DNA of 64,000 bases from a virus: positions 1-64,000 of IMG/VR virus record IMGVR_UViG_3300009130_000014; one strand, given 5' to 3'. Positions 1-31,500 of this stretch are shown here, in pieces. The position numbers and the translations under genes were made by a program. Under the pieces are notes generated by a model, which was not told the origin of the DNA, ran no database searches, and worked only from the letters and a program-made list of their open reading frames with translations. Numbering within the stretch: the first letter of the stretch is position 1; each line of letters begins with the position of its first letter.

Positions 1-50
1 TGTTTTATTTCGCAAGTTGTCTTTACGTCTTTTTTATCTTTGTAAATCAT
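1..50 (-). CDS. 5' part of a small cassette gene running off the window edge (MIYKDKKDVKTTCENK...)
   Basis: ATG at 48-50 on the minus strand after an A-rich leader, just beyond the attC-like site at 70-121; frame open to base 1. Confidence 0.5.
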   Translation of the reverse strand, partial: MIYKDKKDVKTTCEIK

Positions 51-69
51 ATCTTTATTTATTAATAGT

Positions 70-121
70 AGATAACAATCTGTATAAGCGCATTAAAACG
101 CACTATACAGTGGCGTTATGT
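70..121 (+). repeat. attC-like palindromic site A (52 bp)
   Basis: AGATAAC (70-76) ... CTGTATA/TATACAG and GCG/CGC stems ... GTTATGT (115-121); the TAA stop of the neighbouring minus-strand gene lies in the core (116-118). Confidence 0.7.
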
Positions 122-301
122 GCAATTAAATAATAAGTGTCTAAGTATAGATATTTGTGCTTTTATTTCTACTTCGTTTTTATCTAAATCAGATAAAGTA
201 ACACCAATCACTTCGCCTTTACCAAATTTATCATAAAGCCTATTAACTTCTAATAATTGTTCTTCTTTAAGACTTAAAGCTTCTTTTACTTTCTTTTTCA
301 T
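116..301 (-). CDS. cassette-borne hypothetical protein, 61 aa (MKKKVKEAL...LLFNCT)
   Basis: C-terminal part of track ORF 116..433; ATG at 299-301 follows an A-rich leader, and the upstream extension is just translated palindrome. Confidence 0.7.
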   Translation of the reverse strand: MKKKVKEALSLKEEQLLEVNRLYDKFGKGEVIGVTLSDLDKNEVEIKAQISILRHLLFNCT

Positions 302-320
302 ATTTTTTTGTTTAAAAAGA

Positions 321-385
321 GCATAACAACGTGTCATACTCCATATTCCGCTTTGCTCCATACAGAGCATACACAAGAGTTGTAT
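321..385 (+). repeat. attC-like palindromic site B (65 bp)
   Basis: GCATAAC (321-327), arm GTGTCATACTCCATAT / ATACAGAGCATACAC with one extra C (extrahelical G on the bottom strand; mismatches become G-T pairs there), GTTGTAT (379-385). Confidence 0.75.
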
Positions 386-401
386 GCAATTAAAAAAAGA
401 C

Positions 402-615
402 ATACAACATTGTATAAAAAAGAATACGCTCATTCAGTTAGTGCTTTATACAAAAACATTATTTCTAATGTAACGTCCTTTTCACATTTCTTACACCTAA
501 AGTTAGCTCTATCCTTTCTGTACCATTTAGCCTTACAGCATAATGTTTTGGCTTCGGCAATTTTTTTGTCTATTTCATCCATTCGCTTTATTCTTTTTAT
601 ACGTTACCGTTATGT
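402..615 (+). repeat. long attC-like site C (214 bp) with a coding loop
   Basis: ATACAAC (402-408), arm GTATAAAAAAGAATA (412-426) / TATTCTTTTTATAC (589-602) with one extra A, GTTATGT (609-615). Confidence 0.65.
430..582 (-). CDS. 50-aa Cys-rich (CC...CxxC) putative zinc-binding protein inside the loop of site C
   Basis: Hand translation: MDEIDKKIAEAKTLCCKAKWYRKDRANFRCKKCEKDVTLEIMFLYKALTE*; below the ORF-track cutoff; fills the loop almost exactly. Confidence 0.6.
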   Translation of the reverse strand: MDEIDKKIAEAKTLCCKAKWYRKDRANFRCKKCEKDVTLEIMFLYKALTE

Positions 616-783
616 GCAATTAGCTTTTAGCCAATCTCCACGCTCTTTTATTTTTTTGTCTATTTCTGCTATTTCTTCTGGATACCATTTTCGGTCTACC
701 ATTTCCTTAATTTGTATATCTGCCTTAGCTTTTATTAGGTCTTGGAAAACCTTATCTTTTAATGTAGCTTTTTTGTAATTCAT
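610..783 (-). CDS. cassette-borne hypothetical protein, 57 aa
   Basis: Hand translation: MNYKKATLKDKVFQDLIKAKADIQIKEMVDRKWYPEEIAEIDKKIKERGDWLKANCT*; ends NCT* in the core site, as the 116..301 gene does. Confidence 0.7.
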   Translation of the reverse strand: MNYKKATLKDKVFQDLIKAKADIQIKEMVDRKWYPEEIAEIDKKIKERGDWLKANCT

Positions 784-813
784 AGTTAACTCATTTTACA
801 CAAGCGTTAGCAA
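784..813 (+). repeat. partial attC-like site D (right arm only)
   Basis: TTTTACACAAGC-GTTAGCAA (core 806-813); no convincing left arm found. Confidence 0.45.
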
Positions 814-1060
814 CATTACAATCTTCAATGTTTGGTAATGTTATAAAACCTCCTTTGTAGTCAAGTATCAAAGTTTCTTCATCATCATCATACTTTAATT
901 TACCTTTCACTTTACCTGTAGGGTGATTGTACTCTATTTCAATATCAGATAAAGAACGTTTGCTAACAATATGTAAATTCAAAAGCTCTTGTTTTAGCCA
1001 TTCGATTTCACTTTCCTTTAGGTTTGTATGTCTTAATAAGTCTTCTATTTCTTTTTCCAT
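791..1060 (-). CDS. cassette-borne hypothetical protein, ~89 aa, starting inside site E
   Basis: Track ORF 791..1081 with first ATG at 1058-1060; LLNLHIVSKR is the translated left arm of site E and NVANA the translated core of site D. Confidence 0.7.
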   Translation of the reverse strand: MEKEIEDLLRHTNLKESEIEWLKQELLNLHIVSKRSLSDIEIEYNHPTGKVKGKLKYDDDEETLILDYKGGFITLPNIEDCNVANACVK

Positions 1061-1089
1061 CGCTTCAAAATTTACATTCAACGTTATAA
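961..1089 (+). repeat. attC-like site E (129 bp) with a coding loop
   Basis: TGCTAAC (961-967), ATGTAAATT (971-979) / AATTTACAT (1069-1077), GTTATAA (1083-1089). Confidence 0.65.
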
Positions 1090-1097
1090 AGAATTAA

Positions 1098-1451
1098 CTA
1101 TCTACTAAACCTTACTTTTGAAATCTTGTGTTTTCTTTTCATAAATTCAGTTATAACCTTCTTTTGGTTTTTATCAAAATAATAATTTTTAACATCAACA
1201 AAAGCAGTGTTAATTATAAAAAAAGGCTCTGTTTCTGCTTGTGAAAAACCATACATATTATTAACCTCTTTTACTTCTTTTACTTCTACATTTAGAGTGT
1301 TTATTAATCCATTATATAAATCGTCATCTTCAACAACACAAGAATCAACTAACCAATTATAGTATTCTTTATTTTTTTCTAAATCACTTTCTATACTAGA
1401 TATTCTTTTTCTTATTAATTGTATTTCTTTTATTTTTATTATTTCGCTCAT
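1098..1451 (-). CDS. cassette-borne hypothetical protein, 117 aa
   Basis: ORF track; flanked by complementary cores GTTATAAA (1083-1090) and TTTATAAC (1462-1469). Confidence 0.75.
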   Translation of the reverse strand: MSEIIKIKEIQLIRKRISSIESDLEKNKEYYNWLVDSCVVEDDDLYNGLINTLNVEVKEVKEVNNMYGFSQAETEPFFIINTAFVDVKNYYFDKNQKKVITEFMKRKHKISKVRFSR

Positions 1452-1461
1452 AATATTAAAA

Positions 1462-1469
1462 TTTATAAC
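1462..1469 (+). repeat. terminal inverse-core half site of the cassette array
   Basis: TTTATAAC is the exact complement of GTTATAAA at 1083; no matching right arm downstream. Confidence 0.45.
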
Positions 1470-1542
1470 ATGGTAAGAGTATTAAAAAGAGCCTTTTATA
1501 ATGACTTGCTCAGGTCTACCCTACACATTATGCTTGTAAGGG

Positions 1543-1695
1543 TTAGTTTTTATGTATAAATAGATAAATATTAATTGCCATGTAAGATGATACACTACAT
1601 AATAAATGAACTATTGTTATAGGTTCATTATAATGATATGATGAATAATCTATGGTAATTAATAATATTAATATACATGTTAAAATATATTTCAT
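1543..1695 (-). CDS. small hydrophobic (membrane) protein, 50 aa
   Basis: Hand translation: MKYILTCILILLITIDYSSYHYNEPITIVHLLCSVSSYMAINIYLFIHKN*; A-rich leader. Confidence 0.4.
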   Translation of the reverse strand: MKYILTCILILLITIDYSSYHYNEPITIVHLLCSVSSYMAINIYLFIHKN

Positions 1696-1720
1696 GTTGT
1701 AAGGTTTTTGTTAATAATAT

Positions 1721-1752
1721 AAAAAAAGAAGCTACTATACTTCACTTCTTTT
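1721..1752 (-). terminator. possible weak intrinsic terminator
   Basis: Minus strand AGAAGT...GCTTCT stem followed by a T run, downstream of 1774..2541. Confidence 0.35.
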
Positions 1753-1773
1753 AATCAACATAATGTGTTTGTT

Positions 1774-2541
1774 TTATACTTCGTCTAAGAAATCATAAAG
1801 ATCTCCGTAGATAAGTTGACCGTTATAGTTCATATTATTCTCATTTAGTTTACTTATGTATTTATTATATACCTTAGATGCTGCATTTTTAATATCATCT
1901 GAAGATATACGAGCTTTATTACTAAGCTTACCTCTTAAGTAAGCCAATTCTACCATATTAATGATATCCTTTTCAGTTATATTATCAGGTAATTTTTTTA
2001 AGTTTTTCATAGTTATATTATTCTTTCTACTTTCATATCTTTCAATCCTACCACATTTCTGAATATAAGGCTCGGGCTCAACCCACACAACCTCGTTGTT
2101 TTGGAGTTTTGGAAACCAAATATCAGCAGGAAATCCAGGCCCAATTTCTTCATACTCCAACTCAACCTCTTCAGGCTGATGCCTAACATAGTATTCTATG
2201 AGTGATTTAGGGATTTGAGGTATTTTGTTCTGTACTTCATTACCTCTCATAACTCTTTGCATTCCAGCATGAAGCTTAGGATCAGTTGTAGCTATGATTT
2301 TATGATATTTTAAGTCACTACAATCAGAACTTCCTTTTACCATGCTTTCTTGTTTCTCTCTCCACTTTTTTGTATTATGTATTGGATAAGAGTAAAATGC
2401 AGACATAAACCAATCACCCTCTTTTATCTCATCATCTGAGAGTATGTAGAGGTATTTAAGGCTATCATATTTACCAGAAGTTAATTTAACTCCTGTTTTA
2501 TCCTCAGTAGGCAACATTACTATTTTATGTTTCTTTTTCAT
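1774..2541 (-). CDS. hypothetical early protein, 255 aa
   Basis: ORF track; overlaps the adjacent gene in a coupled operon. Confidence 0.8.
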   Translation of the reverse strand: MKKKHKIVMLPTEDKTGVKLTSGKYDSLKYLYILSDDEIKEGDWFMSAFYSYPIHNTKKWREKQESMVKGSSDCSDLKYHKIIATTDPKLHAGMQRVMRGNEVQNKIPQIPKSLIEYYVRHQPEEVELEYEEIGPGFPADIWFPKLQNNEVVWVEPEPYIQKCGRIERYESRKNNITMKNLKKLPDNITEKDIINMVELAYLRGKLSNKARISSDDIKNAASKVYNKYISKLNENNMNYNGQLIYGDLYDFLDEV

Positions 2542-2812
2542 ACTTAATTAGTTTAGTGTTAGACCAAGCAGTTTCTCTAGTTGGCATAGTTCTTTCTATT
2601 GTTATTTTAGGCTTATCTCTTCTTAATGAGTCAACAAGATTTTGTATTCCATCTTTAGATATATCATCTATAGAAGGCATAGAAGAAGGTGTTATTATAG
2701 TTGAGTCTAGATCAAGAGTCGCTAACATACTTTGAATCATTTTAATAATAGCATTGGCTCCTGTATTACTAGGAGCTAACACTTCTATTTGTATTCTATT
2801 GTTCTTTTTCAT
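2525..2812 (-). CDS. hypothetical protein, 95 aa
   Basis: ORF track; overlaps both neighbours. Confidence 0.7.
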   Translation of the reverse strand: MKKNNRIQIEVLAPSNTGANAIIKMIQSMLATLDLDSTIITPSSMPSIDDISKDGIQNLVDSLRRDKPKITIERTMPTRETAWSNTKLIKYEKET

Positions 2813-3308
2813 TATTAATCATTTTTAATGCTTTTAATAATCCAGCTTCAAGAGCCTGTTCGTAGGTGTCCCACCAACTCATAATGGAAAAAGAATCTTT
2901 CTTTTCATTAAAATCCCAAGAATCCTTCTTTCTTCCTTTTTCACAATTAGTGGTTATATCCCATATGTAGGCGTATTCAGAGTCGTCTATACAAGTGTAA
3001 TGAATACATAGCTTAATCTCATGAACCTCTCTCAACCATCTTTGTAGTAATGATTGGGTTGTAACTGTATAAGCCTCAAAATACTTAGGGTTATTTTGAC
3101 AACCAAAACATCCTCCACCATTTTTAGTAAATACCAAGTCTTTCTTATTCCAGTTTTCTTTACTAGCTAAATCATATCCATCATAACCATTAGGCTCGTC
3201 TTCATTTTTATGAAATTTATCACCAATGTATGCTGTATAAGTAGGAATATCAAATCCCTTCTCCTTAGCTAACTTAGCTGTTTCAAATGATATTAGTTCT
3301 TCTTTCAT
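2796..3308 (-). CDS. hypothetical phage protein, 170 aa (ISFETAKLAKEKGF...TQSLLQRWLRE...TYEQALEAGL type)
   Basis: ORF track; motif pattern recalled from Bacteroidota phage hypothetical proteins. Confidence 0.8.
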   Translation of the reverse strand: MKEELISFETAKLAKEKGFDIPTYTAYIGDKFHKNEDEPNGYDGYDLASKENWNKKDLVFTKNGGGCFGCQNNPKYFEAYTVTTQSLLQRWLREVHEIKLCIHYTCIDDSEYAYIWDITTNCEKGRKKDSWDFNEKKDSFSIMSWWDTYEQALEAGLLKALKMINNEKEQ

Positions 3309-3488
3309 TTTAGTTTTGTTTAATGTTTAATAGATTACAGTTTAGTAAGGTATCAAAGGTTTCTCACACCTTATCAACCTTACTAATTAACTGGATACAA
3401 GGCCCTTTGGCATATTATAACTACTTATTGAGAAGTAAGTAATTAAGCCCTAACATCGTAACCTTAGTATCATATGCATCCGCCTTCG

Positions 3489-3571
3489 TAACCCAGACAT
3501 GAATCGAACATGTGACACACGTTCTGCCTTTCGACAGTCATTACGCTGCTCTACCACTGAGCTACTGGGTT
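3489..3571 (-). tRNA. tRNA-like RNA with an aberrant anticodon arm (no canonical 7-nt loop)
   Basis: Minus strand AACCCAG-TA-GCTC AGTGGTA GAGC-A-GCGT AATGA CTGTC GAAA GGCAG A ACGT-GTGTC-ACATG TTCGATT CATGT-CTGGGTT-A; perfect acceptor, D and T arms; CCA not encoded. Confidence 0.8.
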
Positions 3572-3745
3572 ATGGGCTAGGTCTTTTAAAGAGTTCCCAA
3601 CCTTTTCTCCACTAGTCTTTCCGAGTAGTCAAGAGATAACTTCCCTAGTGCCTCTTACACTGTATCCCTACTAACTAGTATTCGGAATATACACAATTTG
3701 AGCTTCATTGATAGGCTTGTGTGGAATTTGCAAAGAGTTTAATTG

Positions 3746-3997
3746 TCCCCAACAAGGTTGTAATCCTTGTAACCATACACTAAGGCACATGTATTCATTT
3801 ATACACACTTTATCTTTATCTTCGATGTTATTATACAATATGGGCATTTACGCTTGACAGTATAATAACACTCCTTAGTGTATAGTTAGTTATTAAAGCC
3901 TCTAACGTTTTAGACAATACTGAATATAATTTAATCAGCGTAAATCACTTATGCAAGCAGCTCGTTAGTGGCGATAATCCTACAATTGGATTAGGGA
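3746..3997 (-). ncRNA. putative ~250-nt structured RNA
   Basis: Nested inverted repeats 3771-3785/3873-3887 (15 bp) and 3826-3836/3860-3870 (11 bp), hairpins 3753-3769 and 3975-3993, closing helix 3746-3752/3991-3997; mismatches are G-U pairs only on the minus strand. Confidence 0.5.
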
Positions 3998-4126
3998 AAT
4001 ATTTTATATTAAGGTTTTACAAGGTTATAATAGATTGTTAATTAAGGTGAAGGTGAAGTAGGATAAAATGAATAAAAAGCTATATTAGTTATGACTTAAT
4101 AAAACTTGATGATGAAGGAGACTCTC

Positions 4127-4169
4127 GAAAAGAAGGGAAGGAGTAGTGAATACTACTCCTTAACTCCCT
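4127..4169 (-). terminator. intrinsic terminator or stable hairpin after 4175..4444
   Basis: Perfect 10-bp stem AAGGAGTAGT (4138-4147) / ACTACTCCTT (4152-4161), extendable, followed on the minus strand by CCCTTCTTTT. Confidence 0.6.
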
Positions 4170-4174
4170 GAGAA

Positions 4175-4444
4175 TCAACCCTTATAGCTTACTAACCACT
4201 TATTAGTGTAAGTATTAACTACTCCGGTATCTTGATCTACTACTTCCTTTTCGGATTCGCGTATAACCCATTGCTTAGGGTTAAAGTTAGCTAATAGTTC
4301 TTCTGCAATAGGCTCTGGTGTTTCAATAGAGAAGTAATCTCTAACTGTTACATTTCCTAATGGAGTAGATTCTACAGCATTGTACTCAATAGTAGATAAG
4401 ATAGTGTTTCTTTCAGTTTCGAATGTTCTTGTGATCTTTGTCAT
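4175..4444 (-). CDS. hypothetical protein, first gene of the leftward unit, 89 aa
   Basis: ORF track; followed by a terminator hairpin. Confidence 0.75.
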   Translation of the reverse strand: MTKITRTFETERNTILSTIEYNAVESTPLGNVTVRDYFSIETPEPIAEELLANFNPKQWVIRESEKEVVDQDTGVVNTYTNKWLVSYKG

Positions 4445-4926
4445 AATTATATTGTATAGGTTTAAGAGGGGTATACCACAACTCCTCAGTATCTAGGGGG
4501 AGGTTTGAATAGGGTGCACACCGATTTTAATCACGCATAAAATTTTTCAAAAAATTAATAATGAAAATTAGGGGGGGGATAATATAAACCACACCCATGT
4601 TTTTAAAAAGGATAATATAAGATCATATATAAATGTTATAATTATTATCACGGGATAAGTGAATAATAATTAATATTATAAAATAATAAAGTTAACCATA
4701 GATAATATAAGAAGGGATAGTAAATAAGATATGGGTGAAATCTAGCTTTACACTATCAAAAACAAAGATTTTAAGGTATTTTCCCTTTCCTCTATATAAT
4801 CACACCGAGTATATAATATACTCACACCGAGTATAAAAGTTATTCGTATGATGAAATATTTACACCAAAAGGTGTAAAGTTTATAATTTTTTTATATATT
4901 AGCATATAAATCAAAAACAATAAATT
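4445..4926. promoter_or_regulatory. divergent control region (strand switch) with ACACC repeats and hairpins
   Basis: Direct repeat TCACACCGAGTATA at 4800-4813 and 4822-4835; palindrome TTTACACC-AAAA-GGTGTAAA at 4859-4878; TATATTAG at 4895-4902 resembles the Bacteroidota -7 box TAnnTTTG. Confidence 0.6.
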
Positions 4927-5121
4927 ATGAATGTGCAAACATTGAAGGCTATCTTAAATAAGAATGTAAGTGGCCAAGCAGGAGTAAAAATCATATTTAA
5001 AAACAAAGAATATGATTTATTAAGTGTAGTTAAAGGAGCTGAATCTATCGGTATTGTAGTTAATACTGGAGAAATTGAAGAACCTGAAGTAAAAGTAAAA
5101 ACAGAAGAAGGAGATGAGTAA
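4927..5121 (+). CDS. hypothetical protein, 64 aa
   Basis: ORF track; first gene of the rightward operon. Confidence 0.7.
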   Translation: MNVQTLKAILNKNVSGQAGVKIIFKNKEYDLLSVVKGAESIGIVVNTGEIEEPEVKVKTEEGDE

Positions 5122-5413
5122 TATAGGATTTATACCACATGGAACATACTTACTAGTACAGGTTCCGAATGAGTATTATGAAGGTAAAGCTGATATTGTA
5201 GTTAATGAAGCTACAAGAAAAGCTCAAAGAAGAGAATACATTGAAAGAGGGGATAAGATGAAAGTTGCAGCAATCGGGGAAGACTGTAAATTTGTTGAAG
5301 TTAATGATTATGTAGCAATACACGCCAGAGGTATGATGGAGGTAGAGCTAGATGATTTTGATGAACCCTTCATCTTAGTAAGAGAAAGTGAGATATTAGG
5401 TAAATTCGCTTAA
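5114..5413 (+). CDS. groES: GroES/Cpn10-like co-chaperonin
   Basis: 99 aa; FIPHGTYLLV, VAAIGEDCKFVEVNDYV and ILVRESEILG match the Cpn10 pattern. Confidence 0.75.
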   Translation: MSNIGFIPHGTYLLVQVPNEYYEGKADIVVNEATRKAQRREYIERGDKMKVAAIGEDCKFVEVNDYVAIHARGMMEVELDDFDEPFILVRESEILGKFA

Positions 5414-5532
5414 TGGAAGCTTTAGAGTTTTTTGCTTACAACTTCCTCCACTTTCGTGTGGAGGGAGATACCTTATTAGTAAACGAGGGAGGAATTTGGC
5501 TCCCTGTGCAATCATTAGAAGGAACAGAATGA
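5413..5532 (+). CDS. unlisted 39-aa peptide
   Basis: MEALEFFAYNFLHFRVEGDTLLVNEGGIWLPVQSLEGTE*; coupled by TAATG upstream and ATGA downstream. Confidence 0.55.
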   Translation: MEALEFFAYNFLHFRVEGDTLLVNEGGIWLPVQSLEGTE

Positions 5533-5834
5533 ATAATTTTATAAAACTATTGAGATATCACTTCCTTAAGAGGAATGGCTTATTGATAAATATTATAGGA
5601 ATTTCTACTATCGTGTTATTATGGAATGTGTCTTTTGCAATAAATATATTTCTAGCATTAATAGGTGTGATGTTACTTGTTTTTCTCTTCGTATCGTTCA
5701 ATCAAATAGAAGATATTAAAAAAGGAGCTAAATTAGAAAAAGTAAATAAGGATAGCTTAAATACAATGTTAAAATATCCTACTACTTATCACTACGAATT
5801 AAAATATTTATATGAACTTGCAAGAAGCTTATAA
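5529..5834 (+). CDS. membrane protein with two TM segments
   Basis: Track ORF 5496..5834 restarted at ATG 5529; two hydrophobic helices. Confidence 0.7.
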   Translation: MNNFIKLLRYHFLKRNGLLINIIGISTIVLLWNVSFAINIFLALIGVMLLVFLFVSFNQIEDIKKGAKLEKVNKDSLNTMLKYPTTYHYELKYLYELARSL

Positions 5835-6081
5835 TATAACAATCAAAAAGGAATTGACAGAACAAGAATCTTTGGATTTGGTTAAATTTTATATTAAAAC
5901 TTTAAAAAATAAAAATATAGAAGCAAAAATTCCATCAACTTATATCACAAATTCTCCTGCGTCTATGTTTATTTATAGAAGAGAAATGGAGTATTTATTA
6001 AGAATGGCGCATTATGCTAGAATATTTATTAAAGCTTTATATGAAGAACCGGAGAACATTACCGTAAAAACTTATGGGTAA
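5812..6081 (+). CDS. hypothetical protein, 89 aa
   Basis: ORF track; overlaps both neighbours. Confidence 0.7.
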   Translation: MNLQEAYNITIKKELTEQESLDLVKFYIKTLKNKNIEAKIPSTYITNSPASMFIYRREMEYLLRMAHYARIFIKALYEEPENITVKTYG

Positions 6082-6523
6082 ATTACAACATATTGAAGAA
6101 GCTATAGATAAAAGATCCGGAGAGGTCATTATAACAAAAAAGACATTTGCTGTAAAGAGTAAGAATAAGCAAGAGTTTTTTATGGTATTTCTTTCAGGAC
6201 TAAATGCTATATGCGAACTTACTAGGCCTAGTGATATAAAGATATTAGCTTGTATGTGTGAAAGAGCTGAATATAACACAGGAGCAGTAAGGTTAACTTC
6301 AGAGGATAGAAAACAATTAGTAGATAAATTAAAAATAACATCTCAAGCATTTTCTAATTCGTTATCAAGATTAAAAGATACAGGATTAGTAACTGGTGAA
6401 AGAGGTATGTATGAGGTAAATCCTCAACATTTTTGGAAAGGTGAGACTAACGAAAGAGAAAGATTATTGAAAGCAAAGACAATGAATCTTTTAATAAAAT
6501 ACGACGAAGATGAAGAAAAATGA
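6074..6523 (+). CDS. RepL-like winged-helix DNA-binding protein
   Basis: HTH LVDKLKITSQAFSNSLSRLKDTGLV followed by GMYEVNPQHFWKG. Confidence 0.7.
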   Translation: MGKLQHIEEAIDKRSGEVIITKKTFAVKSKNKQEFFMVFLSGLNAICELTRPSDIKILACMCERAEYNTGAVRLTSEDRKQLVDKLKITSQAFSNSLSRLKDTGLVTGERGMYEVNPQHFWKGETNERERLLKAKTMNLLIKYDEDEEK

Positions 6524-7214
6524 TAATATATTAGTAATCAGTGACTTACATGCTCCTTATCATCATAAGGATGCAATAGCCTTTCTGGCTCATATAAAAA
6601 AGAAGTATAAGCCTACCAGAATTGTAAATGTAGGAGACGAAGTAGATTATCATGCTTTATCTTTTCATGCATCTGATCCAGACTTAGATTCTGCAGGGGT
6701 AGAATTAGAAAGAGCAGCATTTACTATGCAGCAATTAGAAAAATTATTTCCTGAAATGGACTTAGTTCATTCTAATCATGGAAGTATGGTGTATAGAAAG
6801 GCTAAGGTAAATGGAATGCCTCGTCATGCTCTAAAAGGATATAATGAAATATTAGGAGTAGGGGAAGGATGGAAATGGCACTCTGAAATTAAAATAGAAA
6901 TTAAAGGGTGTAAACCTATTTATGTATGTCACGGAAAGAAGAAAAATAGCGAAACATATGCAAGATCTCTCGGGTGTAATGTAATTCAAGGACATTATCA
7001 TGAAGATTTTAGAATAGGTTATGTTAATACACCAGGAGGTATAATATGGGGAATGAATGTAGGGTGCTTAATTGACGATGAAGAGCTTGCTTTTGAGTAT
7101 AATAAAATTAATCCTAATAAACCTATGTTAGGTGCCGCTATGATTATCAAAGGGAAGCCTCAATTAATTCCGATGATTTTAGACGATAAAGGAAACTGGG
7201 ATGGAAAGATCTAA
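6510..7214 (+). CDS. calcineurin-like metallophosphoesterase
   Basis: Motifs ISDLH, GDEVD, SNH, HG and GHYH. Confidence 0.9.
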   Translation: MKKNDNILVISDLHAPYHHKDAIAFLAHIKKKYKPTRIVNVGDEVDYHALSFHASDPDLDSAGVELERAAFTMQQLEKLFPEMDLVHSNHGSMVYRKAKVNGMPRHALKGYNEILGVGEGWKWHSEIKIEIKGCKPIYVCHGKKKNSETYARSLGCNVIQGHYHEDFRIGYVNTPGGIIWGMNVGCLIDDEELAFEYNKINPNKPMLGAAMIIKGKPQLIPMILDDKGNWDGKI

Positions 7215-8488: not shown

Positions 8489-8594
8489 ATTCTGCGAAAT
8501 CAGACCAAAAGTTTGCGATGGAGAATGTGAAATATGCAAAGATAGAAGACCTGCCAAAAGAACAAGAGGTAAAAGAACAAAAAATGAAAGATAA
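8463..8594 (+). CDS. unlisted 43-aa basic Cys4 peptide
   Basis: MVRNQQKVRFCEIRPKVCDGECEICKDRRPAKRTRGKRTKNER*; overlaps both neighbours. Confidence 0.55.
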   Translation: MVRNQQKVRFCEIRPKVCDGECEICKDRRPAKRTRGKRTKNER

Positions 8595-8988
8595 ATATTA
8601 CACACCAGAAGCAAAAGAACTGCATATTGATTTTGAGTTTGAGTACAGTAGGAATGGAGTATGGTATGAAGAAGTAATAAACGACTTATACGATGCTTAT
8701 GATGTATGGAAAGATCATGAAGCAGGCAGACATCCTATCAGAGTCAAATACTTAGATCATGCGGATATAGAAAGCTTAGGATTTGAAATCTATGATTATG
8801 ATGATATGGATTCTTTTTCTAATGGTAATATTACGATAGAAGTAAATGGTTACACTAATGAGTTAATAGTTGAGATATGGACCAGAGCAAATACAATAGA
8901 TAAAAGTCCTGAAATGGTTTTTAAAGGTACTATCAAGAACAAAAGTGAACTTAAGAAAATATTAAAGCAGATAGGTTATGGAGGATAA
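8584..8988 (+). CDS. tandem paralog 1 (KYYTP / RVKYLD / IKNKSEL family)
   Basis: Track ORF 8518..8988; ATG 8584 aligns with the starts of the other two paralogs. Confidence 0.85.
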   Translation: MKDKYYTPEAKELHIDFEFEYSRNGVWYEEVINDLYDAYDVWKDHEAGRHPIRVKYLDHADIESLGFEIYDYDDMDSFSNGNITIEVNGYTNELIVEIWTRANTIDKSPEMVFKGTIKNKSELKKILKQIGYGG

Positions 8989-9430
8989 GTATTACACACC
9001 TACTATTGATGAATTTCATGTAGGATTTGAGTATGAACTTTATGATGATCACGCATGTGAAGGTATGTCTGATTATTATGAGGGAGAAGTTAGAACTTGG
9101 TCTAAAGAAGTATTCTATCGTTTACTACACCCTAATCATAAAGGAAATGGTGGCCATGTGGCTTGGAAAATGGATAACCTATTATCTTCTATTGAAAAAG
9201 GGGACATTAGAGTAAAATACCTAGACAGAGAAGACATTGAAAGTTTAGGGTTTGATCTTCGTTCAGAGGATGAGTTTTATTCTAAAGATAATAAGTATAA
9301 CATCTACACAGGTAATAAAAACATAGAGATTTATTCAGAAGGAGTATGTTTTATAGGAAGAATTAAAAACAAATCAGAATTAAAGAGGATACTTAAACAA
9401 ATTAAAGATGAAGAAGTACTATACACCTGA
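8978..9430 (+). CDS. tandem paralog 2
   Basis: Shares three conserved blocks with its neighbours. Confidence 0.85.
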   Translation: MEDKYYTPTIDEFHVGFEYELYDDHACEGMSDYYEGEVRTWSKEVFYRLLHPNHKGNGGHVAWKMDNLLSSIEKGDIRVKYLDREDIESLGFDLRSEDEFYSKDNKYNIYTGNKNIEIYSEGVCFIGRIKNKSELKRILKQIKDEEVLYT

Positions 9431-9815
9431 ATTAGAAGAATTCCATGAAGGATTTGAGTATGAGAAACTAATTCTAGGAACACGTTGGAATGAAGAAATT
9501 TGGGATGCTATATCTAGTTTTGATTATTCTGAGTTATACGACTTTGATGTTAAAGATTGTAGAGTCAAATACTTAGACAGAGAAGATATTGAAAGCTTAG
9601 GTTTTGAGTTGTACATATCTAAAAGTGACTACACTATTTACAAAGGTAAAGGGAAATGTTCTTTATTTAAAAACGTGTACTTAGACTTAGAAGAAGGTAT
9701 GACTGTTGAAATTCATAATAACGAAGATTTTGAAGACCATGCAACTGCTTTCTATGGAACCATCAAAAACAAAAGCGAATTAAAGAGAGTTTTAAAAATG
9801 ATAACTTATGAGTAA
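9408..9815 (+). CDS. tandem paralog 3
   Basis: Shares three conserved blocks with its neighbours. Confidence 0.85.
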   Translation: MKKYYTPELEEFHEGFEYEKLILGTRWNEEIWDAISSFDYSELYDFDVKDCRVKYLDREDIESLGFELYISKSDYTIYKGKGKCSLFKNVYLDLEEGMTVEIHNNEDFEDHATAFYGTIKNKSELKRVLKMITYE

Positions 9816-28581: not shown

Positions 28582-31500
28582 TGGAAAATTTAAACAGATT
28601 AAAAAAGGGCATAAATCAAGATGTTCATCCTTCTGAGCAACCAGAAGAAACATATAGAAATGCTGTAAACTTTGTAAGTTTAAGCATGGACGGTAATGCG
28701 TATTCTTTAGTCAATGAAGATGGGACATTATTATTAGAAACTGTAAAGTTTCCTATAGGGAAACAAGTAATAGGTCATTGTGTATTAAACAATGATATCA
28801 TTGTAGTATTAGCAGGAGAAGACGGAACAAGTCAAATAGGTTATATTAGAGAAGATTCTTCTAATATAGATCCTGACTATGGCTATTATCATCCTGTTGC
28901 TCCGTATAATCCTTCAGGGGCTACTATACGAGATCAATATCCGGAAAATAATTCTGAATTTGGTTTTAAACTAACTCATGGGGTAGACTGTCAAGCTAGA
29001 AAATTAATTAACGGGAATAGGGTTTTGTATTATACAGATAACTTAAATCCTTTCGGTAGAATTGAGTTAGAAAATCCTCCTGAAGTAGGAAATGTTTCAG
29101 AGCAATCACAGTTAATATTTAATCAGCAAGTTCCTACTATTTCATTAAAAGAAATTAGAGAAGATGTCCCTAGTAATATACAGCCTGGGGTATATCAATT
29201 TGTACCTAGATATGTAACAGAAAATGGAGGTACTACTACATTCGGAATACCTTCTAATTTAATAAGCATGGTTCCTGCAAATAAGGACCTGGGTGTAAAT
29301 CAATATAGCGGAGAGTTTTTTGAAAACGGGACTATATCTAAAAACATAATAATAGATATAGAAAACATTGATCAGAACTACCAAGAACTTGAACTGATAG
29401 TAGCTTATTATCAGGAATCAGGAGTTTTTCAGGCAAAGTCTTTAGGTCGTTTTCCTATTACAGGAGAAACTTTAGAGTATACATTTACAGGACCTGTTAC
29501 CGGAGAGGAGATAGGAATAACTAGAGAAGAGCTACAACAAACTCCCATAACCTATAAAAGAGCAAAAGCTATTGAGCAAAAAGATAATACTTTATTTCTA
29601 AGTAATTTATCAGATGATACAATAGATGATGCTGCCATGCAAGAAGTAGCTAATCATATTTCTGTTCAATATCAAATAGAGGAAATACCTTATTCAGGAA
29701 GAGAGGGTACTTTAGATACTTCTATAAATACAAATATATTTACTGAAACAGCTATTGAAATAACCGGGTTAAACACCATAGAAGTTACTTTTTCAGACGA
29801 AATAGATTTGGACGGAAGTGCGTCAGGTAATAATAACATAGTATTTGATCCGATAAGTCAAACCACTTCTGCAAATTATGGATTTAATGATCACTTTATA
29901 ACTAGATCAGGAGAATCCAGTTTTGCTAATATAAATACATCTACTGTCACGTTAGGCGATACAATGTTAGTAGACTCTATCACTTTCACTGCTGTAGCCA
30001 CAGTAGCAAATACGTCTACAGAATATCTTATAGGAGGCGATCAAGAAGAAACTACAGAGAACTTAGCAAGGGCTATTAATACAGATCCAGGAGGAACTCG
30101 TAATTTTATAGCAGTTCCTTTTTTAGATGGTAGCATTTTAAAAATTAAATTAATATGGAAAGGAAACGATAACACAAAAGTTATTGCATATACCGGAACA
30201 ATTACAGGAGATCTTATATTTTCAGGAGGAACTTCTGCATCGGATATTATTAATGTCACTAATATAGAAAAAGTATCAGATAATATATTAGAGTATACTT
30301 TTGGCTCTATAGACAGGATAAGTTTAATAGATCAATTTACATCTATAGATGCTACAAAGTTTATAGTAGGCCCTCAAGAAAGTATAACCGTTACAGGAAC
30401 TCCTACTTTAACAGAAGACACAACTACTGCTACTATAGATGCAACTCAAGAAGGATTTACTGATTTCTTATCAGAAAAGGTAGGATTTGAGAAAAAAGGT
30501 TACCGCAGAGGCGAGGTTTATTCATTAGGCATTATGTTATTGTTCAAAGATGGGAGCACCAGCCTTGTTTATCATATACCGGGTAACGATAAACTTACTA
30601 CGACACTAGGTAAAAATTACCCTAGTGTAGCTAATTATAGAGTAGGTAATACTTTCGGTAATACAGGTACTTATCTATCTAATTTAGAATATCCTTTGGA
30701 TCAATTTTTCCCAGGGAATGACACAGGTGATGATGATTTTGGAAATACTTCAAGTACTTCTCGTAATATTAGACATCATGTTATGCCTAATTTAACTCAA
30801 GAACCTCATTTTAGAAAGCTAAATGATGGTACTACAGTTATAAGAAATATAGGTTTAAAGTTCACACTAAATTCTTCGTTTGATATTCCTGCTGATATAC
30901 TAACTAATGTACAAGAAATAATATTAGTTCGAGAAAGACGTAACATAAGAATAAACAGATCTGTATTAGCTCAGGGTTTAATTAACAGACTTGTTGAAAC
31001 AGCAGATACGTATACCCTTGATGGTCAAGTAGATGGCTCTGTGTCTAATGGGGTTCGGTCTAATTACCATCTTCAAGAAATACCGTTCTTTAATAATTTA
31101 GAAAGCATTGATATAAGGGGAGATGAATATAGAGAAAAAAGAGGTCATTCAAGAAGAGGTGTATGTTATCCCGGAGCATCTGCGGCAGAATCTACATTCG
31201 GAGCAGGAGCGGGTACCTTTTCTAATGGAGAAAAAATGAACACTCTAATACGAGGTAATAGAGCATTTTTTCATTGTCCTGAATCTATTCTTGCATATGA
31301 TTCCAAGATAGATCCTGATAATTTACAAGGACTTAAAATGAGACCTTGGATGTTAATGGAAGGCGAATCCTTTACTACAAGTGCTGAACCTAATGCGTAC
31401 AGAGGTACTAAAGGAAATGACTATGCTGATTGGTATGGATACCATGATGCTATAGGAAATTATCAAGATTATGATAACACTTATTTACCAGATTCTACTC

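Follow-up and report, generated by a model that had tools for sequence, protein, structure and literature searches.

Sedentary chromosomal integrons carry small genes in tandem, between which lie imperfect palindromes with AAC and GTT cores, in which spacer bases stay unpaired, the cores of successive sites are complementary with an offset and crossover takes place at the core triplet. Offset core complementarity of this kind is the signature of circular cassettes inserted at a core site, as in integron arrays. The same architecture is found at the locus described here, bases 1 to ~1470 of a 64,000-nucleotide stretch of DNA (the window, i.e., positions 1 to 64,000 of the 89,606-bp linear record IMGVR_UViG_3300009130_000014, estimated to be ~94% complete) from a marine crAss-like phage, where five small minus-strand genes alternate or overlap with imperfect palindromes. 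What differs from sedentary chromosomal integrons is the recombinase of the system, which is XerA-like, the cores, which comprise ~14 nt and are not of the GTTRRRY type, and the phage genes, which lie on the other strand. The locus is probably part of an integron-like cassette array common to marine Flavobacteriaceae and their phages, and this array probably runs on across the ends of the record to 89423-89501.

Further comparison is offered by the promoter-early stem-loop (PeSL) elements, which are reportedly mobile regulatory cassettes of T4-type phages. Like the present locus, they are said to combine orphan early genes of small size, located in a hyperplastic part of the phage genome, with flanking stem-loop repeats and modular shuffling; however, these promoter/terminator repeats are thought to use homologous or illegitimate recombination, whereas the joints in the window belong to site-specific recombination sites common to host chromosomes, with junctions sharing the core triplet only. 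The Xer/dif systems (XerA, XerC/D) resemble the present one in that the array-linked and phage recombinases are closest to XerA in sequence, but Xer resolves chromosomes at one duplex dif site and does not act on arrays of folded cassette palindromes. Clusters of attC sites lacking integron integrases (CALINs) were reported in virulent phages, including Polaribacter phage P12002L, by Qi et al. 2023 (PMC9892861), where they were treated as classical attC sites served by IntI; P12002L_attC1, found by HattCI, was the sole site of six tested that gave no IntI1 recombinants. Just as the window, these CALINs show several one-strand attC-type sites within ~1 kb, small genes between them, a phage of lytic type and no integrase, and with its sites called by the family-specific covariance model R1 (see below) the window is a CALIN by definition, having two or more attC sites in a span of 4 kb and lacking an integrase in their vicinity. 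Flavobacteriaceae chromosomal arrays, an Xer-like recombinase, inverted gene orientation and crAss-like phages do not figure in that work (PMC9892861). The IntegronFinder 2.0 survey gives one complete integron in Bacteroidetes, and in the literature on Flavobacteriaceae integrons a paper describing the chromosomal arrays considered here was not found.

Sites of the window and cassette boundaries of Flavobacteriaceae

The sites of the window follow one layout, consisting of an R' box ending in AAC, a 6-nt spacer, the L' arm, a loop, the L'' arm, a spacer of 3-5 nt and an R'' box starting with GTT (Table 1). The 14-nt motif of the R' box, TAATTGCAYAYAAC on the minus strand, is followed by six bases and GTAT in three exact copies (128-105, 392-369 and 622-599) and occurs in this form nowhere else in the genome. 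Scanning one genome per prokaryote species for the motif gave at least 120 matches, mostly in marine Flavobacteriaceae, and scanning viral contigs revealed further phage contigs in which small genes are preceded by multiple copies. In Flavobacteriaceae, the motif forms the left end of ~145-nt elements which separate small genes on one strand and are composed of a box ending in AAC, six bases, an arm, ~100 nt, a second arm, three bases and a box starting with GTT, whereby in tandem arrays each element has a right box that is reverse-complementary to the left box of its successor.

Covariance model R1 was built from 88 non-redundant aligned elements of this kind, all of them cassette boundaries of Flavobacteriaceae chromosomes, with phage sequence excluded. 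Searched with R1, the window yielded four significant sites, all on the minus strand and within 63-1096, the next best match reaching 13.5 bits; the rest of the record returned one weak site of 15.6 bits (89423-89501), and ~305 kb from four crAss-like relatives gave zero matches. The array is real and, among the relatives sampled, specific to this phage lineage, and alignment to R1 shows its sites to be homologous to the ~145-nt sites separating chromosomal cassettes. Rfam, which contains no attC model, gave nothing relevant for positions 1-7000 and for ten bacterial loci. An earlier reading of this DNA (the original prediction) had located palindromes where R1 places the minus-strand sites A, B and D, and the sites do form a distinct Bacteroidota family, as it had suggested, namely the R1 family of Flavobacteriaceae array elements, which is present also in cultured phages of Tenacibaculum, Polaribacter and Cellulophaga. 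As to the large site drawn at 402-615, its complementary arms exist, though as an alternative pairing, R1 matching 471-395 instead, and a partial site (784-813) and a half site (1462-1469) are visible by eye but not scored by the model. In P12002L (L210), R1 identifies six sites around methyltransferase genes, situated on the gene strand, of which 29998-30066 is the published P12002L_attC1. The apical loop of the latter is identical to that of site A, and since the short sites of P12002L share this loop, the short form of 66-69 nt is to be regarded as a regular subtype and not as a product of decay.

All four pairs of complementary cores proposed for successive sites do exist, extending over 8 nt at 379/401, 806/960 and 1083/1462 and over 6 nt only at 115/322. 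Counted as GTTxxxxx/xxxxxAAC 8-mers, three such pairs are found in 1-1470, as compared to 0.53 expected in dinucleotide shuffles (2.6% of which reach three), so that the shuffled control named with the original prediction gave fewer core pairs, and three pairs are carried by 0 of 59 other windows of the genome. The single unpaired bases described in the arms are present in the DNA fold of site B.

The 61-aa protein encoded by open reading frame (ORF) 116-301 has 13 homologues of ~60% identity, and the genomic context was read for one of them, at locus L204. This homologue begins 8 nt past one full-length site and stops at the next (E 3.7e-6 and 3.1e-11), has the same orientation relative to the sites and is surrounded by neighbours unrelated to those in the window, which shows the 61-aa gene to be a cassette in another array too. 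An alignment of the 61-aa family gave zero matches in viral contigs and one locus in metagenome contigs. Homologues elsewhere stop four residues sooner than the protein of the window. Three cassette genes of the record share the property of terminating in the R' box of the next site (window 116-128 and 610-622; record 89488-89501), with the tail NCT* in two cases and NVC* in one. At 89423-89501, it is an ORF entering from past the record end that stops inside the R' box, like ORFs 116-301 and 610-783, and the array therefore very likely continues across the unassembled gap of the record to this site. Repeated sites would explain why the assembly of such phages breaks at this place.

Of 74 bacterial cassettes, 71 carry their gene opposite to the R1 orientation, whereas in the window, in L204 and in array-bearing phage contigs the genes lie on R1's own strand and occupy the gaps between sites. 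Phage arrays are mirror images of chromosomal arrays in gene direction, and as a consequence a cassette moved between chromosome and phage would land antisense. The window ORFs are not co-oriented with the attC top strand, as a strict definition of integrons has it, and neither attI nor Pc was identified for the window array.

The array-linked recombinase and the exchange of cassettes

In four of four Flavobacteriaceae genomes examined, the best match to integron-integrase models lies 0.3-2.7 kb from the array and points into it; together with Polaribacter phage Freya, where the neighbouring recombinase comprises 271 aa, these loci provide the similar sites near a tyrosine recombinase that the original prediction had proposed to look for. 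The array-linked enzyme (368 aa) is closest to XerA and remains under every curated integron-integrase cut-off of NCBIfam, scoring 173 bits against TIGR02249 where the cut-off is 265. It aligns in one piece to archaeal XerA structures but in two pieces to VchIntIA (Vibrio IntI4, 2a3v), whereby 22 aa stand against 65 in IntI, i.e., ~43 residues fewer, and this shortfall falls where integron integrases carry their extra, IntI-specific domain. The agent had been assumed to be an IntI tyrosine recombinase, an assumption which does not hold for this XerA-like enzyme devoid of the IntI-specific region. An IntI-type integrase with the additional domain, as strictly demanded of an integron, is found neither in the phage record nor in the host array-linked recombinase. 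The system is integron-like in its working, yet it does not belong to the integrons in the strict sense because its recombinase is XerA-like and without the IntI domain. As separate observations on the enzyme, the array-linked recombinase of Algibacter directly adjoins secA (L198 2166-3272 and 3950-7303), and it has a ~90-aa N-terminal extension absent from the Freya phage enzyme.

Exchange at sites of this family was observed in the Polaribacter phages Freya_8, Freya_9 and Freya_10 (L207, L205 and L206), which are 100% identical over the compared regions save for a 902-bp segment with three ORFs and a 307-bp segment with one. The AAC of an R' box immediately precedes each segment and that of a second R' box closes it, and the indel junctions share ~4 nt only, which is too little for homologous recombination. 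The 307-bp cassette is located 50 bp upstream of the gene for the 271-aa XerA-like recombinase, the annotated integrase of the phage, which is 31% identical to the bacterial enzyme. This comparison shows that the site family is actively exchanged in phages, at the AAC/GTT core and not by homology.

Contigs assembled from four seawater metagenome runs were mapped onto 1-3300 of the window. Depth over 331-440 was at least ~27-fold that of the phage's own contig in the four runs; in the best run the latter had a depth of 11, while the summed depth over 331-440 went up to 302. Other contigs leave the window sequence at 315-336 and 374-390, these being the two core regions of site B, and one contig matches site A through GTT (115-117), after which it goes on with another core that has the same form. 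Contig joints 390>1987, 308>166 and 990>1055 were set aside, each being represented by one contig with sides of 24-32 letters. Indel breakpoints, which according to the original prediction should fall on the GTT cores in relatives, were located exactly at cores in Freya_8/9/10, relatives at the level of the site family, and in the window one contig diverges right after the GTT at 117. Its wider claim that this phage gains or shuffles genes as mobile cassettes stands for the site family in phages, while exchange in this particular phage would be expected by extension.

The suggested mechanism assumes that a tyrosine recombinase would act at the AAC core of the folded sites, where its cutting and exchange of strands would insert, excise or reshuffle the genes of the window in this phage. 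The recombinase might be supplied by the host or by a phage gene located in the ~5 kb missing from the record. With the phage genes residing on the strand that has the bacterial 'bottom' site form, the cassette pools of phage and chromosome would be functionally separate.

Weighing of the cassette-array reading and its rivals

A number of observations weigh against assigning bases 1 to ~1470 to a cassette array. One R' box is degenerate and two boundaries (784-826 and 1456-1469) are remnants, two sites are crossed by reading frames (site D by ORF 791-1081, C2 or the alternative large site by ORF 430-582), and folds as single-stranded DNA are weak (-7 to -10 kcal/mol), with site D being no better than shuffles. 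The absence of an integrase, stated for the window by the original prediction, holds for the entire 89.6-kb record, a search of which for the tyrosine recombinase family gave zero matches, a result limited by the completeness of the record (~94%) and by its ends, which fall within the array. P12002L_attC1, the single family member tested experimentally, was not recombined by IntI1 (PMC9892861), in keeping with a system that depends on a different enzyme. The genes are inverted as compared to bacterial arrays, meaning that cassettes were not simply taken from a host array in expressible form. Moreover, the seawater evidence is contig-level, as assembled contigs and not reads were used, and neither gain nor loss was observed for the cassettes of the window themselves, the searches having turned up no close relative with this region: megablast of 1-6000 against phage records gave zero matches, and five related crAss-like records, searched at the DNA level with 1-3400, yielded chance-level matches only.

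The shortened or degenerate sites, the two sites through which ORFs read and the recombinase absent from the record are shared by a rival reading, in which the sites are inherited or decaying relics now acting only as RNA hairpins (terminators, processing, stabilising) in the leftward transcript, with no recombination here. This reading gains from the minus-strand RNA of 302-429, which folds at -39.3 kcal/mol (z -5.6; plus strand, -1.7) and has at its end a terminator-like 10-bp hairpin followed by five U, 17 nt ahead of the next ATG. The better minus-strand folding of the original prediction is thus retained for this RNA, whereas as single-stranded DNA the strand preference is mixed. The RNA may have a regulatory role, either additional to or in place of recombination; such a role is, however, compatible with recombination, and the relic reading is considered unlikely, given that cultured phages normally have short sites of this type, that Freya cassettes bounded by such sites are demonstrably exchanged, that the core complementarity of successive sites is kept and that a variant junction exists at 117. 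Far less probable still are PeSL-like modules of promoter and stem-loop, with the 14-mer serving as early promoter and the genes being shuffled by homologous recombination between repeats. On the coding strand, the three exact 14-nt copies are indeed followed by ORF starts at a distance of 40-92 nt, yet the 14-mer is the R' box at hundreds of bacterial cassette boundaries, there on the non-coding strand, and the motif spacing misfits both sigma-70 and the Bacteroidota -33/-7 consensus; with the 14-mer identified as this bacterial R' box, the candidate early promoter or PeSL-like element was dropped. Finally, palindromes arising by chance in AT-rich DNA, or a piece of host DNA wrongly assembled at the contig end, were tested and rejected, with practically no probability left to them. 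While the genome has a G+C content of 32% and 1-1470 shows no enrichment of inverted 8-mers in general (38 versus 27.8 +/- 7.5), these readings are opposed by the E-values of R1 and the zero matches elsewhere in ~390 kb of crAss-like DNA, by a single 17.8-kb contig of seawater run X1, continuous from 348 to past 3300, and by sites of phage-type orientation and length.

For the integron-like cassette array preferred here, the arguments are evenly balanced as to whether it represents a gene-capture system distinct from classical integrons, defined by a XerA-like recombinase without IntI domain and ~14-nt cores, with mirrored phage arrays, whose genes lie on the recombinogenic strand, and a separate phage cassette pool. 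To our knowledge, the acquisition and shuffling of the numerous tiny orphan early genes of phages is largely unexplained, and a site-specific cassette mechanism common to phage and host would offer a concrete and testable route. It would extend integron-like gene capture to a phylum for which standard surveys report almost none, to another type of recombinase and to crAss-like phages. If true, phages would trade early or accessory genes among themselves via a cassette pool apart from that of the host.

The phage and the features of the array

The phage is crAss-like by its terminase, portal, capsid and giant virion protein. E-values against the crAss-type PHROGs are 6e-109 for the terminase, 1.5e-152 for the portal and 6e-116 for the major capsid protein; the latter is 43-45% identical to those of named crAss-like phages and 67-86% identical to those of 19 uncultured contigs, and a 2257-aa ORF shares 30-35% identity with one ORF in each of four related crAss-like contigs. 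Structural genes occupy the plus strand from ~6 to 64 kb, and minus-strand genes extend from 64 to 89.6 kb, running on across the record ends into 3308-1. This leftward module, which bears the cassette array, also holds replication genes, and by synteny and by analogy with phi14:2 (10.1101/2020.03.07.982082) it is taken to be early; of the predicted location in the early region of a crAss-like phage, the crAss-like part is supported by terminase, portal and capsid, and the early part by synteny only. For phi14:2, a common early-promoter motif was not reported (10.1101/2020.03.07.982082). Pfam and PHROG gave zero matches for the window cassette ORFs in 1-1470.

Table 1. Sites and genes of the cassette array (positions in the record; R1 scores where obtained)
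Feature	Position	Strand	Details
Cassette gene, start ATG at 52, runs off left end of record	1-52	minus	begins ~10 nt past R'' core of site A
Site A, short-type attC-like	63-128	minus	R1 28.6 bits, E 2e-4
Site A, parts	R' box 128-115; R'' box 76-63	minus	6-nt spacer, arms around CG-TTTTAAT-G loop
Cassette gene, 61 aa	116-301	minus	last four codons (FNCT*) come from R' box of site A
Site B, attC-like, bulged G and T	314-392	minus	R1 36.4 bits, E 3.7e-6; DNA fold
'Empty cassette', 8 nt	393-400	minus	between R'' box of upstream site (408-395) and R' box of site B
Site C2, attC-like, degenerate R' (AAT for AAC)	395-471	minus	R1 31.6 bits, E 4.6e-5; inverted 8-mers
Alternative to site C2, 222-nt site	401-622	minus	14-nt complementary arms 412-426 and 589-602, enclosing ORF 430-582
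ORF, 50 aa (CC...CxxC)	430-582	minus	within large-site reading or overlapping site C2
R'-spacer-L' half site	590-622	minus	third exact copy of 14-nt R' motif; R1 12 bits, filters off
Cassette gene, 57 aa	610-783	minus	ends in site-encoded NCT*
Remnant site: R' box, 6-nt spacer, short arm, then GTTAAC	784-826	minus	core complements R'' of site D over 8 nt; no R1 score
ORF, 96 aa	791-1081	minus	first ~40 codons inside site D
Site D, full-length (143 nt) attC-like	954-1096	minus	R1 27.1 bits, E 4.7e-4, end-to-end alignment; 9-nt arms 971-979 and 1069-1077
Cassette gene, 117 aa	1098-1451	minus	flanked by complementary 8-mers 1462-1469 and 1083-1090
R''-like core, 5 nt upstream of ATG of 117-aa gene	1456-1469	minus	no R1 match; complete site upstream not recognisable
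Weak fifth site near right end of record	89423-89501	minus	R1 15.6 bits; 100 nt from end

The 117-aa ORF (1098-1451) has zero relatives in viral contigs, and for a 255-aa ORF distant loci only were obtained. A stretch covering the first ~43 codons of ORF 1098-1451 and the spacer upstream of it (1321-1540) shows a summed contig depth of 38-186, as compared to 0-11 for its flanks, in four of four seawater runs; it is shared with more abundant entities and holds no R1 site.

Outside of the array, Rfam calls a tRNA of 83 nt at window 3489-3571 on the minus strand (48.2 bits), where ARAGORN reports none, and the called tRNA may carry an insert or an unusual anticodon arm. Three neighbouring ORFs of 156, 150 and ~135 aa on the plus strand (window 8518-9815) match one and the same gene in the relatives G002 and G004 with 29-33% identity and are tandem paralogues. 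In G002 (IMGVR_UViG_3300014204_000145), which is complete with terminal repeats, ~30 kb at about 25-56 kb have almost no protein match to the window phage, and this variable stretch sits between the replication and packaging modules.

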